Positions 18,641-22,857 of a DNA stretch of 64,000 bases are shown in pieces (positions within the stretch are counted from its first letter, which is position 1; every line of letters starts with the position of its first letter). Where the stretch lies: NCBI GenBank assembly GCA_945787555.1, contig CALZJG010000122.1, forward strand, positions 5,674 through 69,673, given 5' to 3'. The notes under the pieces were generated by a model that saw only the letters and a list, made by a program, of their open reading frames with translations, was not told the origin of the DNA and did not search any database. This DNA is from an uncultured Chromatiaceae bacterium. Its GTDB lineage: Bacteria; Pseudomonadota; Gammaproteobacteria; DRLM01. The position numbers were made by a program, and so were the translations under genes.

Positions 18641-19255
18641 TCAGGCGCTCGCCAACAGTCCTTCACGTTCTATAAACCTGATCACCCCATCAACCCCCAC
18701 ACCGCGCTTAAGATCGGTGAAGATAAATGGCCGGTCATCACGCATACGGCGCGCGTCCTGATCCATGACGTCCAACGAAGCACCGACATGAGGCGCGAGA
18801 TCAATTTTATTGATTACTAATAGATCAGACTTGGTAATACCTGGCCCGCCCTTGCGCGGTATCTTTTCGCCAGCCGCCACGTCAATCACATAGATCGTCA
18901 AATCGGATAGCTCGGGACTGAATGTCGCGCTGAGATTGTCACCGCCACTCTCGATCAACACCAAATCCAAATCGGGAAAGCGGCGACACAGCTCTTCCAC
19001 GGCGGCAAGATTCGCCGAGGCATCCTCACGGATAGCGGTGTGCGGACAACCACCGGTCTCCACACCAATAATGCGCTCCGGCGTCAGCGCATCGTGACGA
19101 ACTAGAAACTGCGCATCCTCCTTGGTGTAGATATCATTGGTCACCGCCGCGATTTGATAGCGCTCACGCAGGGTGCGGCACAGCGCCAACATCAAGGCGG
19201 TCTTGCCCGATCCCACCGGCCCGCCGACACCGATACGCAATACGGATTGAGCCAT
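18641..19255 (-). CDS. ureG: urease accessory GTPase UreG
   Basis: 204 aa; P-loop GPVGSGKT and conserved ETGGCPH motif. Confidence 0.92.
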
Positions 19256-19278
19256 GCTGAAACTCCAGATGTATTGAT

Positions 19279-19404
19279 AAGCACGGAGGACACGGACATC
19301 ACGAAGATAGAATTGAATAGGAAGCTATTGGGCGAGCACGCTGTACCAGTGTCGTATCAACGATCCAATGACTCCGCTGTCTTCTCCGTGTTCTCCGTGG
19401 TTAA
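19279..19404. repeat. intercistronic inverted-repeat element, copy A (ureF|ureG)
   Basis: Arms AAGCACGGAGGACACGGA ... TCTTCTCCGTGTTCTCCGTGGTTAA are mutually complementary (14 of 15) and flank an ~85-nt core. Both arms are repeated at 20534-20610. Confidence 0.6.
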
Positions 19405-19408
19405 CTCT

Positions 19409-20098
19409 TCAAGAACGAAACAAACGCGAATACTGCGTCTCGTGCAGGGCGCTACCTATAGCCAGGCGCGGCGCGGCATAGCCTATCTCATCATCGGCTA
19501 GCGCCAGACCTTCATCGACGACCGTAGGAATTTCCATTACGACGCGCGACAGGATGCGCTGACCTGCGGTCTGCCCCAACGGCACCAACTTGATCGCCGC
19601 CGCCACTTGCGCTTCACACCACGCCCAAAGATAACCGCTCACCGCCTCGGGCAAGGCGATGCGCCACTCCGCCGCCGCCAGCGCGAACAGTACAGCGTAA
19701 CCGGTGTGCGCATGCGGCACCCAAGGCGCCGCCTGCGGCAACTCCAAGTCGCGCAGCAAGCGCGCCAAGGCCGCGCCCAAATGACCATCCTCTTCCTGCA
19801 ACTCGCGCGCCTCACGACTGGCGTGCAGCATGGCGCTCCAATATTCCAACGCCTCCTCATCGTAGCTTGACCAGGCAGCATAGAGCCGCGCCAATACCGG
19901 CGCATCCAAACGCGCCAAGCCATTACACAATAAACCGCAGATCCAATCGCGCGCGGTGGCCTCATCATGTACCCAGCGCGCATTCACCGCATACTCTAAT
20001 CCCTGCGAATAGGCGAACGCACCCACCGGCAAGGCCGGACTGGTCAATTGCAGCAAACGCAATAACGCCGCTCGCTTGGCATTGCTGTCAGTGTTCAT
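19409..20098 (-). CDS. ureF: urease accessory protein UreF
   Basis: Start MNTDSNAKRAALLRLLQLTSPALPVGAFAYSQGLE is the canonical UreF N-terminus. The listed ORF carries a spurious 45-aa extension. Overlaps ureE by 11 nt. Confidence 0.85.
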   Translation of the reverse strand: MNTDSNAKRAALLRLLQLTSPALPVGAFAYSQGLEYAVNARWVHDEATARDWICGLLCNGLARLDAPVLARLYAAWSSYDEEALEYWSAMLHASREARELQEEDGHLGAALARLLRDLELPQAAPWVPHAHTGYAVLFALAAAEWRIALPEAVSGYLWAWCEAQVAAAIKLVPLGQTAGQRILSRVVMEIPTVVDEGLALADDEIGYAAPRLAIGSALHETQYSRLFRS

Positions 20099-20516
20099 GA
20101 CGATAAGCTCCGGCTTCGGGCTCGAAGGACGTGTCTTCGCAATCGATGTGCAAACCCAAACCACGCACCATGTCATCCAAGACATGGTCACGCCCGTAAC
20201 GCAGCCAGCCCGCGCCAACTTGCACCGGCACATGACGATTACCTAAGTGATAGGCCGCGCGCGCCAACACCAGGGCGTCATCGCTGCGCGCTGTGGACAC
20301 CGCCTCCGCTGCGGCGCGCACGGCAATCAACTCGCCGTTCTCGGCGCGCAACACATCACCGCCGCGCAACACCGTGCCGCGCACCAGCAGCAGCGCCGCC
20401 TCCCGCCCATCATCGAGGCGCACGCGCTGACGGCTCTTCTGGCGTTGCTCGAAGGGCAATGTCAACACCGCCTCACATTCGGCACTTTCAGCGACGCGCT
20501 CGACGATCTCCAGCAT
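20088..20516 (-). CDS. ureE: urease accessory protein UreE (no His-rich tail)
   Basis: 142 aa; LTLPFEQRQKSRQRVRLDDG motif of the UreE N-domain. Confidence 0.85.
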   Translation of the reverse strand: MLEIVERVAESAECEAVLTLPFEQRQKSRQRVRLDDGREAALLLVRGTVLRGGDVLRAENGELIAVRAAAEAVSTARSDDALVLARAAYHLGNRHVPVQVGAGWLRYGRDHVLDDMVRGLGLHIDCEDTSFEPEAGAYRHEH

Positions 20517-20533
20517 TCAATGGCCCCTAACTA

Positions 20534-20610
20534 AGCAGGGAGGACACAGAGGAGCAATGCTCGCGTTCAATAGCACTCCAAATAATCTTCTCCGTGTTCT
20601 CGGTGGTTAA
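20534..20610. repeat. intercistronic inverted-repeat element, copy B (ureC|ureE)
   Basis: AAGCAGGGAGGACACAGA ... TCTTCTCCGTGTTCTCGGTGGTTAA; same arms as copy A with a shorter core. Begins 6 nt after the ureC stop. Confidence 0.6.
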
Positions 20611-20616
20611 TCATGT

Positions 20617-22320
20617 TCAAAACAAGAAATACCGCTGCGCCAGTGGCAACTCACTGGCCGGCTCGCATTGCAACAACACGCCGTCGGCGCGCACTTCATA
20701 AGTTTGGGCATCGACTTCCATCCGCGGCTGGTAATGATTATGAATCAAATCGGCCTTGCGTACCGCGCGCGTGCCGCGCACTTCGACCAGACGTTTTTGC
20801 AAACCCAGCGCCTCGCCCACACCGGCCTGCAGGGCGGCTTGCGAAACAAAGGTCACGCTGGTCGCCGTGAGCGCTGCACCATAGGCGCCGAACATATTGC
20901 GATAGTGTACCGGCTGTGGTGTGGGTATCGAGGCATTCGGATCACCCATGGGAGCGGCGGCGATCATGCCACCCTTGATGATCAGACTGGGCTTGGCGCC
21001 AAAGAAGGCCGGCTTCCACAACACGATGTCGGCCAACTTGCCCGCTTCGATCGAGCCTACTTCGTGGGCGATGCCGTGAGTAATGGCGGGATTGATGGTG
21101 TACTTGGCCACATAACGCTTGGCGCGATAATTATCGTGCTGCGCAGTGTCTTCCGCCAATGCGCCGCGTTGCGTTTTCATTTTATGCGCGGTTTGCCAGG
21201 TGCGTGTGATGACCTCACCGACGCGCCCCATGGCCTGTGAATCAGAAGCAATCATACTGAAGGCACCGAGATCGTGGAGAAGGTCCTCGGCGGCAATGGT
21301 CTCGCGACGGATGCGCGATTCGGCGAAGGCCACGTCCTCGGCGATGTTGGGATCGAGATGATGACAGACCATCAACATGTCGAGGTGCTCATCGACCGTG
21401 TTGATGGTGTAAGGCCGCGTGGGATTGGTGGACGAGGGCAGCACATTGGCCTCGCCACAGGCCTTAATAATATCCGGCGCGTGACCGCCGCCGGCGCCCT
21501 CAGTGTGATAAGTGTGAATGGCGCGCCCCTTGAACGCGGCAAGCGTATCTTCGACGAAGCCCGATTCGTTGAGCGTGTCGGTATGGATGGCCACTTGCAC
21601 GTCGTATTGCTCGGCGACGTTCAAGCAATTGTCAATGGCCGCCGGCGTGGTACCCCAATCCTCGTGTAATTTTAAACCCATCGCCCCCGCGACGACTTGC
21701 TCCTCCAACGAGGCGGGCAGACTGGCGTTGCCTTTGCCGAGAAAACCCAGATTCATGGGCAAGCCTTCCGCCGCCTGCAGCATGCGCTGGATATGCCATG
21801 GCCCCGGCGTGCAGGTGGTGGCGTTGGTGCCCGCCGCCGGCCCGGTGCCGCCGCCCAACATGGTGGTGACGCCGCTCATCAGCGCCTCCTCCACTTGTTG
21901 CGGGCAGATGAAATGGATATGCGCGTCGAGACCGCCGGCAGTGGCGATCAAGCCTTCACCGGCGATCACCTCGGTGCCCGCGCCGATGACGATGTTCACA
22001 CCCGGCTGGATATCGGGGTTGCCCGCCTTGCCGATGGCGGCGATGCGCCCATGCTTGATGCCGATGTCGGCTTTAACCACACCCCAGTGATCGAGGATCA
22101 GCGCATTGGTGATCACCGTATCTGCGACCTCTTGTGAGGCGCGCTGACTCTGCCCCATGCCATCGCGGATGACCTTGCCACCACCGAATTTCACCTCTTC
22201 ACCATAAACGGTGTGATCTTGTTCCACCGCGATCCATAAGGCAGTATCGCCGAGCCTAATCCGATCACCCACCGTCGGTCCGTACATTTCCGCATAAGCA
22301 CGCCGCGTGATCTTGCTCAT
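20617..22320 (-). CDS. ureC: urease alpha subunit
   Basis: 567 aa; active-site MVCHHLD, Ni-ligand histidines, HEDWG motif. Confidence 0.95.
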
Positions 22321-22634: not shown

Positions 22635-22857
22635 GTGGCTCTCCTTGGATGTCATATCCCACGCAAAGCTGCAAAGATAGCTCCGATTAAGATCGCCCGC
22701 TCATCTTTTCCCACATTGCGCCTTTGCGGTAAATGACCATGAAGCATATGTAGCCTGGATGGAACGAAATGGAACCCGGGTATTGCCGCGCGACGCCCAG
22801 GCGACACGCCTGGCGCAAGAAGCCATTGGGCGGCGCCCCATTCCCGGCCTTGCCTCC

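Follow-up and report, generated by a model that had tools for sequence, protein, structure and literature searches.

In a 64-kb stretch of DNA (the window), the urease (ure) operon carries an imperfect inverted repeat, copy B, in the spacer between ureC and ureE, and the arms of this repeat recur in a second copy, copy A, between ureF and ureG. What kind of element is copy B, how did it come to lie between two cistrons, and does it do anything for the operon today? The comparisons described below indicate that copy B is probably a decayed, gene-less and non-autonomous selfish element, REP- or MITE-like in kind, which belongs to a widespread family of inverted repeats.

Anatomy of copy B

The features of the ureC–ureE junction, with the extent of copy B taken from its sequence and its alignment to copy A, are as follows.

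20617–22320, minus strand: ureC, urease alpha subunit (NCBIfam NF009686, 1068 bits), stop codon TGA at 20617–20619
20532–20610, minus strand: copy B, the whole imperfect inverted repeat in the ureC–ureE spacer, 79 nt
20586–20610, minus strand: 5′ (left) arm of copy B, consisting of TTAAC (20610–20606), unit 1 CACCGAGAA (20605–20597), unit 2 CACGGAGAA (20596–20588) and GA
20553–20585, minus strand: core (loop) of copy B, 33 nt, unlike the core of copy A by alignment
20532–20552, minus strand: 3′ (right) arm of copy B, a degenerate complement of the left arm, TC-CTCTGTG-TC-CTCCCTG-CTTA
20088–20516, minus strand: ureE (NCBIfam NF009751, 189.8 bits), start codon ATG at 20516–20514

On the coding strand, the 100-nt spacer reads, after the TGA of ureC, ACATGA, left arm, core, right arm, GTTAGGGGCCATTGA and the ATG of ureE. 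Copy B begins 6 nt past the ureC stop codon and copy A 4 nt past its own, within the 3–6 nt given by the initial annotation. Copy B ends 15 nt before the ureE ATG, and the candidate ureE ribosome-binding site, AGGGG, sits outside the right arm. The arms belong neither to coding sequence nor to the ribosome-binding context of ureE.

Terminal inverted repeats are present, with 15 of the 21 right-arm positions complementary to the left arm. The earlier description of this repeat needs small corrections. It had placed copy B at 20534–20610, of which the end at 20610 stands and the other moves to 20532, and it had credited each arm with a single substitution relative to copy A, which is true of the left arm but not of the right, where there are two. 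The right arm corresponds to CAGGGAGGACACAGA on the plus strand, with two mismatches. The tandem 9-mer noticed within the arm is indeed there, but is imperfect in copy B (CACCGAGAA-CACGGAGAA). The short, unrelated core, put at ~35 nt, measures 33 nt.

The recurrence of the arms within the window is far beyond chance. The 25-nt left arm occurs twice in the 64 kb, with one base differing between copies A and B, against 0.00 occurrences expected from shuffles, and the tandem 18-mer has three matches with at most three mismatches, against 0.02 expected. When the window was searched with a profile of 203 arms taken from other genomes, only three arms were detected: for copy A the left (E 1.3e-5) and the right (E 0.11), and for copy B the left alone (E 3.9e-4), its right arm being too degenerate to score. 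A generic regular expression for period-9 arm pairs, which was too strict a pattern, had no match in the window. Copy B is near-identical, with two substitutions, in a related metagenome-assembled genome (MAG), L002 (L numbers denote the retrieved loci).

Other elements in the ure operon

The operon lies on the minus strand. UreC, UreE and UreG (18641–19255) were identified by NCBIfam, UreF was assigned from a Pfam label on the source contig, and the gene calls of that contig also give UreD, UreA and UreB. Two further elements occupy spacers of this operon.

19278–19404, minus strand: copy A, in the ureF–ureG spacer, TTAAC-CACGGAGAA-CACGGAGAA-GA ... TCCGTGTCCTCCGTGCTTA, with a core of ~88 nt
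22658–22733, minus strand: variant element, in the ureA–ureB spacer (223 nt, 22635–22857), with arms TTTACCGCAAAGGCGCAATGTGG and CTTTGCAGCTTTGCGTGGGAT and CGCAAAG units of period 8

Both arms are common to copies A and B, and their cores are unrelated. The ureA–ureB element is a variant of the same superfamily and forms the third intercistronic hairpin of the ure operon. Exact matches to its 14-mer ACCGCAAAGGCGCA are found in L093 and in L255, where a hairpin next to a GxxExxY gene has it in each arm; the ureA–ureB junction of L234 is only 23 nt long. These two copies and one variant, all inside the ure operon, are the elements seen in the window.

The window also contains a match to the Rfam family 5_ureB_sRNA (RF02514) at 21885–22171 on the plus strand, antisense to ureC, with 94.8 bits against a gathering score of 40. 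This match most likely reflects the coding conservation of urease alpha shared with Helicobacter ureB, and not a conserved antisense RNA.

Occupied, decayed and empty junctions in related operons

The initial annotation had proposed comparing the ure operons of close relatives for presence or absence of the element, and the polymorphism that it anticipated is found. The relatives, identified through UreE, bear Competibacteraceae or Gammaproteobacteria names, and in most of them the ureC–ureE spacer is 3–60 nt long and the element is absent. The junctions that bear most directly on copy B are these.

L190 (UreE 67% identical) and L196 (64%): full, near-consensus hairpin at ureC–ureE
L229 (UreE 82%): ureC–ureE spacer with a 138-nt decayed version
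L230 (UreE 80%), L232 (77%), L234 (75%) and L189 (73%): ureC–ureE spacer of 26–28 nt, element absent

The decayed form of the ureC–ureE element is shared by the window, L002 and L229. An element with recognizably orthologous flanks is found between ureF and ureG in the window, L002, L230, L232, L234, L190 and L196, and is mostly deleted in L229. Taken together, the occupied, decayed and empty junctions argue for an insertable unit that is old in the clade and is decaying. The same two junctions are occupied down to 64–67% UreE identity, and the arms of L190 are near-consensus. Such persistence may mean that a preferred site was invaded repeatedly, that other copies acted as donors in gene conversion, or that the sequence of the arms is under selection; the last of these, if it applies, would point to a function.

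Over 18 kb, L002 and the source agree at 99.3% of positions, yet in the 200-nt bin with copy A the identity drops to 68%. Within this region (19256–19408 against L002 9021–9169) there are 58 substitutions (33 transitions and 25 transversions), in addition to gaps. Recombination over a short tract could have introduced a divergent allele here, the element could have turned over locally, or the assembly could mix strains; the divergence may be a further sign of turnover.

Other repeats are found at the same places. In L190 and L234, other palindromic repeats are nested in the loop of the ureF–ureG element. Palindromic repeats of other, unrelated types lie at urease junctions in L190 (1560–1690), at ureC–ureE in L199 and L203, and at ureF–ureG in L198 and L203. 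They are of the GTCATTCCGG...CCGGAATGAC type or are hairpins of GCTATCA heptamers, and one of them sits inside a CACGGAG element, within its loop. Small repeats of various kinds seem to settle in urease spacers and hairpin loops.

A family of arms shared across phyla

A 19-nt degenerate arm pattern, TAASCACSGAGRACACGGA, matched 66 stretches of viral contigs and, in a collection with one genome per species, at least 120 stretches spread over many phyla. Nearly all matches run on into additional 9-nt units, and an inverted partner is common. The family arm motif is TTAAC(CACRGAG+2 nt)x2-3, in which the ~2 variable bases are mostly purines, and the profile of 203 arms reads (T)TTAAC-CACGGAG-RA-CACGGAG-RR-CACGGAG. 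Sister variants keep the head and the period and have CACAGAG, CACCAAG, CACGAAG, CACAAAG, CGCGGAG or CGCAAAG as the unit, with the change made in both arms together. A clean example is the hairpin of L148, TTAACCACGGAGAACACGGAGAA-aacaaaaatta-TTCTCCGTGTTCTCCGTGGTTAA.

A census of the fetched loci gave 441 arms, among them 180 in 90 hairpin pairs, with loops of 7–236 nt, and 257 solo arms; the detector used is biased to CACRGAG units. Loops are unrelated across the 90 hairpins. The dispersed family thus shows the conserved ends and variable middle that had led the initial annotation to suggest a terminal-inverted-repeat or REP-like insertable module. The number of units ranges from two to nine (L126, with up to nine, and L133). 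Tandem arrays of hairpins occur in L084 and L107, and direct tandem arrays of arms also exist. Among the matches listed, 48 of the 120 genome loci, each up to 8 kb long, contain at least two elements. One Bdellovibrionales MAG has at least four near-identical copies with differing flanks, each inside a larger palindromic repeat of ~200 nt.

Carriers include Gamma- and Betaproteobacteria, Bdellovibrionales, Desulfobacterota, Bacteroidota, Verrucomicrobiota, Planctomycetota, Acidobacteriota, Nitrospirota, Gemmatimonadota, spirochaetes, cyanobacteria, Chloroflexi, Actinobacteria (Acidimicrobiia) and Bacillota, as well as at least one archaeal (Methanocellaceae) MAG. Many of these carriers are themselves MAGs, in which mis-binned contigs are possible; the isolates include Colwellia piezophila, Desulfobacter curvatus and Ereboglobus. 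Matches on plasmids were confined to the megaplasmids of Gemmatirosa kalamazoonensis, which are without annotation, and there were none in the GenBank phage set. A motif of ~30 nt is kept almost to the letter across many phyla, in numerous viral contigs and in the archaeal MAG. Rfam has no family for the window element or for the clean hairpins of eight other loci, which gave only spurious, sub-threshold miRNA-like matches, and full-text literature searches with arm 14- and 16-mers returned nothing relevant, only unrelated eukaryotic primers. The family is without description in Rfam or in the literature searched.

Several known motifs show what we take to be passing likenesses to the arms: the DnaA box (TTATNCACA compared with TTAACCACA), boxA (UUUAAC), the sarcin-ricin loop, the GGA sites of CsrA and the GAAC of ECF −35 elements. 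None of them accounts for the periodic units.

Gene context

By their flanking genes, called with a crude ORF caller, 34 hairpins are co-directional, 15 convergent and 6 divergent. Hairpins often lie 0–15 nt from both neighbors, and in some cases the TAA of TTAAC itself ends the preceding gene. The placement of the ure copies 4–6 nt past stop codons fits this general habit of the family. In a group of related viral contigs (L014, L017, L036 and L043), three or four solo arms each are oriented with the neighboring genes and flip where the gene direction flips. Arms as portable ribosome-binding sites were considered and rejected: a start codon with an ORF of 60 aa or more comes after 15 of 120 viral solo arms, a control offset gives the same 15 of 120, and the corresponding counts for the genome set are 5 and 7 of 120.

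The arms also disturb gene prediction. When genes are called, GxxExxY ORFs come out too long, since they take in the upstream arm (L115 6200–6613; P0123–P0131, 155 aa) and so gain artificial N-termini such as MLTTEDTESTEE, and arms yield spurious ORFs with repeats of the SVSSVV or HGGHGE type. Such elements can be expected to produce false ORF extensions (with peptides such as TTEDTE or SVSSVV) and to act as hotspots of structural variation inside operons.

RNA structure

The mRNA strand of copy B folds at −23.5 kcal/mol, with a z-score of −0.32 against shuffles, compared to −41.2 (z −1.35) for copy A and z −1.10 for the ureA–ureB element. The antisense (plus) strand is predicted to fold more strongly in each case (z −3.65 for copy A at 19262–19408, −1.06 for copy B at 20517–20616 and −3.07 for the ureA–ureB element at 22650–22745); three cases do not suffice for significance, and the family as a whole shows no strand bias.

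Across the family, opposite arms have complementary 2-nt spacers in 26 of 145 comparisons (18%), where chance alone would give 16.8%, and no compensatory variation was found at spacer positions in the 90 hairpins, where the conserved 7-mers pair trivially. Transition mismatches in the same hairpins comprise 124 G.U and 129 A.C, mixed within elements. Strand-specific RNA selection was rejected on these counts, which show no G.U strand bias. The conserved feature is the sequence of each arm, not the helix. A fold of copy B close to that of shuffled sequence, spacers without covariation and the even G.U counts together argue against a selected RNA structure, at least one selected through its pairing.

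Association with GxxExxY proteins

A protein of ~125 aa encoded beside the arms belongs to PF13366 (PDDEXK_3) and TIGR04256 (GxxExxY), and is the only protein family that recurs near arms in the 120 genome loci, in various taxa, among the matches listed. All seven GxxExxY genes in the loci selected by their arms are directly flanked by arms or hairpins. In the reverse test, GxxExxY genes were fetched by protein identity alone, and all eight loci (L236, L240, L246, L253, L254, L255, L256/L257 and L258) proved to be bracketed by inverted arms, with the same architecture. The bracket takes the form arm-gene-arm or hairpin-gene-hairpin, with variants of the unit. Over both sets, 15 of 15 GxxExxY genes examined are bracketed by such arms. 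The D, E and K triad is invariant in the family, for which no solved structure was found. Its function is listed as unknown, and many transfers between divisions have been described (PMC3424549). The 64-kb window contains no GxxExxY gene, and no GxxExxY relative was confirmed in the viral contigs.

As regards arm variant and GxxExxY clade, the CGC-type loci L246, L255 and L256 cluster, but the proteins of L143 and L236 are 78% identical and have different arms. A gene for a 23S-IVS protein (PF05635) adjoins hairpins in a single case, L254. L236–L245 are population variants of one locus that have, downstream of GxxExxY, three or two arm units and whose sequences part company ~10 nt outside the arm, signs that the arm has slipped and that the DNA beside it varies in structure. 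The structural variation in L236, L240 and L245 was set aside as evidence on the element itself, since its breakpoint lies ~10 nt outside the arm and is uninformative.

GxxExxY is the only candidate seen for a mobilizer of the hairpins, but the gene could instead be cargo. Tentatively, and with some doubt, we raise the reading that the period-9 hairpins and GxxExxY (PF13366, TIGR04256) might together make up one pan-bacterial mobile system, by analogy with REP/RAYT. In such a system, a minimal, Cas4-like PD-(D/E)XK nuclease encoded between inverted arms would recognize the arms, or the hairpin or cruciform that they form, and would copy, move or maintain the gene-less hairpins as they spread into intergenic DNA, between the genes of operons and into loops of other palindromes. 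The elements of the ure operon, all three, would then be its relics. The pairing of arms and GxxExxY offers a first testable lead on a very common and uncharacterized nuclease family, and touches on an old puzzle, the means by which small palindromic repeats, as well as IVS-like cassettes with small ORFs, pass from genome to genome.

Origin of copy B and alternative explanations

We infer that the element is mobile and that an enzyme acting in trans copies or moves its copies. It would have entered the ureC–ureE spacer in an ancestor of the gammaproteobacterium-like lineage, immediately behind the stop codon of ureC and ahead of the site where ribosomes bind for ureE, and would since have been inherited vertically while decaying. 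Copy B would then be selfish, non-autonomous DNA rather than a control element of urease. As it lies inside the operon, it should be co-transcribed with the ure mRNA, in which it would form only a weak, interrupted hairpin, and any effect on the decay or processing of the ureC–ureE mRNA would be a side effect. Most likely, copy B has no role in the ure operon today beyond this co-transcription, and is probably a harmless relic. The search for a conventional mobilizer was negative: no transposase was found between inverted arms 250–4000 nt apart, no transposase or recombinase shares the arm ends, and no transposase family recurs near arms. Neither a target-site duplication nor a near-identical empty site was found among the relatives compared. 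TA or TTAA is present at both ends of the element but falls within the palindrome, and TTAAC is 75–95% conserved per position in the 203 arms.

The occupation of three intercistronic spacers in one operon could also suggest functional RNA hairpins, processed by RNase III or RNase E or acting as a barrier to 3′ exonucleases, which would set the ratio of ureABC to ureEFG products. Such roles have been reported for certain REP, ERIC and Correia elements and for the stems of intervening sequences (IVSs) in 23S rRNA, which RNase III excises. The same two junctions remain occupied down to 64% UreE identity, in each case a few nt past a stop codon and ahead of the ribosome-binding site that follows, and RNase III cuts IVSs whose terminal stems are comparable (PMC4990558). 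However, the mRNA-strand folds are poor for copy B and weak for copy A, all three elements fold better in antisense, and the 90 hairpins show neither compensatory spacer variation nor a G.U strand bias. Moreover, L230, L232, L234 and L189 have lost, or never had, the ureC–ureE element, L229 has deleted most of its ureF–ureG copy, and the same arms are found in unrelated gene contexts in many phyla. We therefore regard a regulatory hairpin as unlikely, but do not dismiss it, given that elements occupy three spacers of the operon and that their positions are kept even in distant relatives. The absence of pairing covariation in the spacers, together with the conserved 7-mer and TTAAC head, would sit well with arms that are iteron-like DNA sites, a 7-mer every 9 bp, for a widespread DNA-binding protein, the inversion being incidental. 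Solo arms, direct tandem arrays and a unit number that varies from two to nine (L126 and L133) are consistent with this. Against it, no DNA-binding regulator recurs near the arms, inverted pairs are common and take in 180 of the 441 arms, a 9-bp period does not correspond to a helical repeat, and the variants change the 4-mer in both arms together (CACAAAG, CGCAGAG and CACGAAG), so that complementarity is kept. Protein-binding sites of this kind are thus a highly improbable account of copy B.

The consensus ends of the family, (A/G)TTTAAC...GTTAAA, loosely resemble the R″ and R′ boxes of integron attC sites, RYYYAAC and GTTRRRY. This resemblance, the variable center, the position immediately after stop codons and the bracketing of small (GxxExxY) genes by arms raise the idea of attC-like recombination sites that delimit small gene cassettes. 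The idea is largely refuted and now scarcely credible: there is no integrase near arms at 186 loci and in the window, nor are there same-orientation cassette arrays beside an integrase; the window copies have only ure genes around them; the ends of copy B, GATTAAC ... CTTAGTT, do not fit these boxes, the left one departing from RYYYAAC; and the arm interior is conserved across phyla, unlike that of attC. A decayed selfish element is, in our judgment, the reading that best explains copy B.

Comparison with known repeat systems

A decayed selfish element of this kind has its closest parallels in REP/BIME sequences and their RAYT enzymes. Each is a short palindromic repeat of extragenic DNA, scattered and often present in many copies, that follows stop codons, lies within operons and is co-transcribed, and each occurs as single, inverted-pair and clustered copies. 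Copy B is itself extragenic, at the 3′ end of a gene inside an operon, and copy number is high in other carriers of the family, against two copies and one variant in the 64 kb of the window. REPtrons have a small nuclease-type gene between inverted repeats, RAYT in their case and GxxExxY here. However, the head is TTAAC, not GTAG or GTGG with a short GC-rich palindrome, and the arms consist of ~9-nt periodic units. No Y1 (HUH) RAYT was found here, the associated gene encoding instead the ~125-aa PD-(D/E)XK protein, and the arm sequence is shared across phyla, whereas REPs are specific to a species or genus.

With MITEs (Correia/NEMIS, ERIC, RUP and Nezha), the elements share terminal inverted repeats, a non-coding length of 50–300 bp, intergenic insertion polymorphism between relatives, TA or TTAA at each end and the capacity to fold in mRNA. 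They differ in that no parent insertion sequence has a transposase and the same ends, that a target-site duplication is inseparable from the palindrome, and that the internal sequence is unrelated between copies, even within one genome, which is unusual for MITEs. Copy B is thus set apart from both classes, from MITEs by the absence of a parent transposase and of a shared core, and from REPs by its head and the absence of a RAYT.

The stem of 23S rRNA IVSs is excised by RNase III, and small ORFs occur inside IVSs bounded by inverted repeats (PMC4990558). Like the present elements, IVSs are selfish and sporadic, with complementary termini (a stem of ~28 bp) and an optional small ORF of unknown function, and are apparently transferred horizontally. 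They are inserted in helices 25 or 45 of 23S rRNA, whereas the elements described here lie in mRNA spacers or intergenic DNA, and the window contains no rRNA.

The STRRs of heterocystous cyanobacteria are likewise short tandem intergenic units that can face an inverted array and extend hairpins. In contrast to the ~9-nt units found here, STRR units are 7 nt long, are confined to one lineage and are without the conserved TTAAC head. Heptamer arrays of the STRR kind are present inside some of the hairpin loops (L099 and L198).
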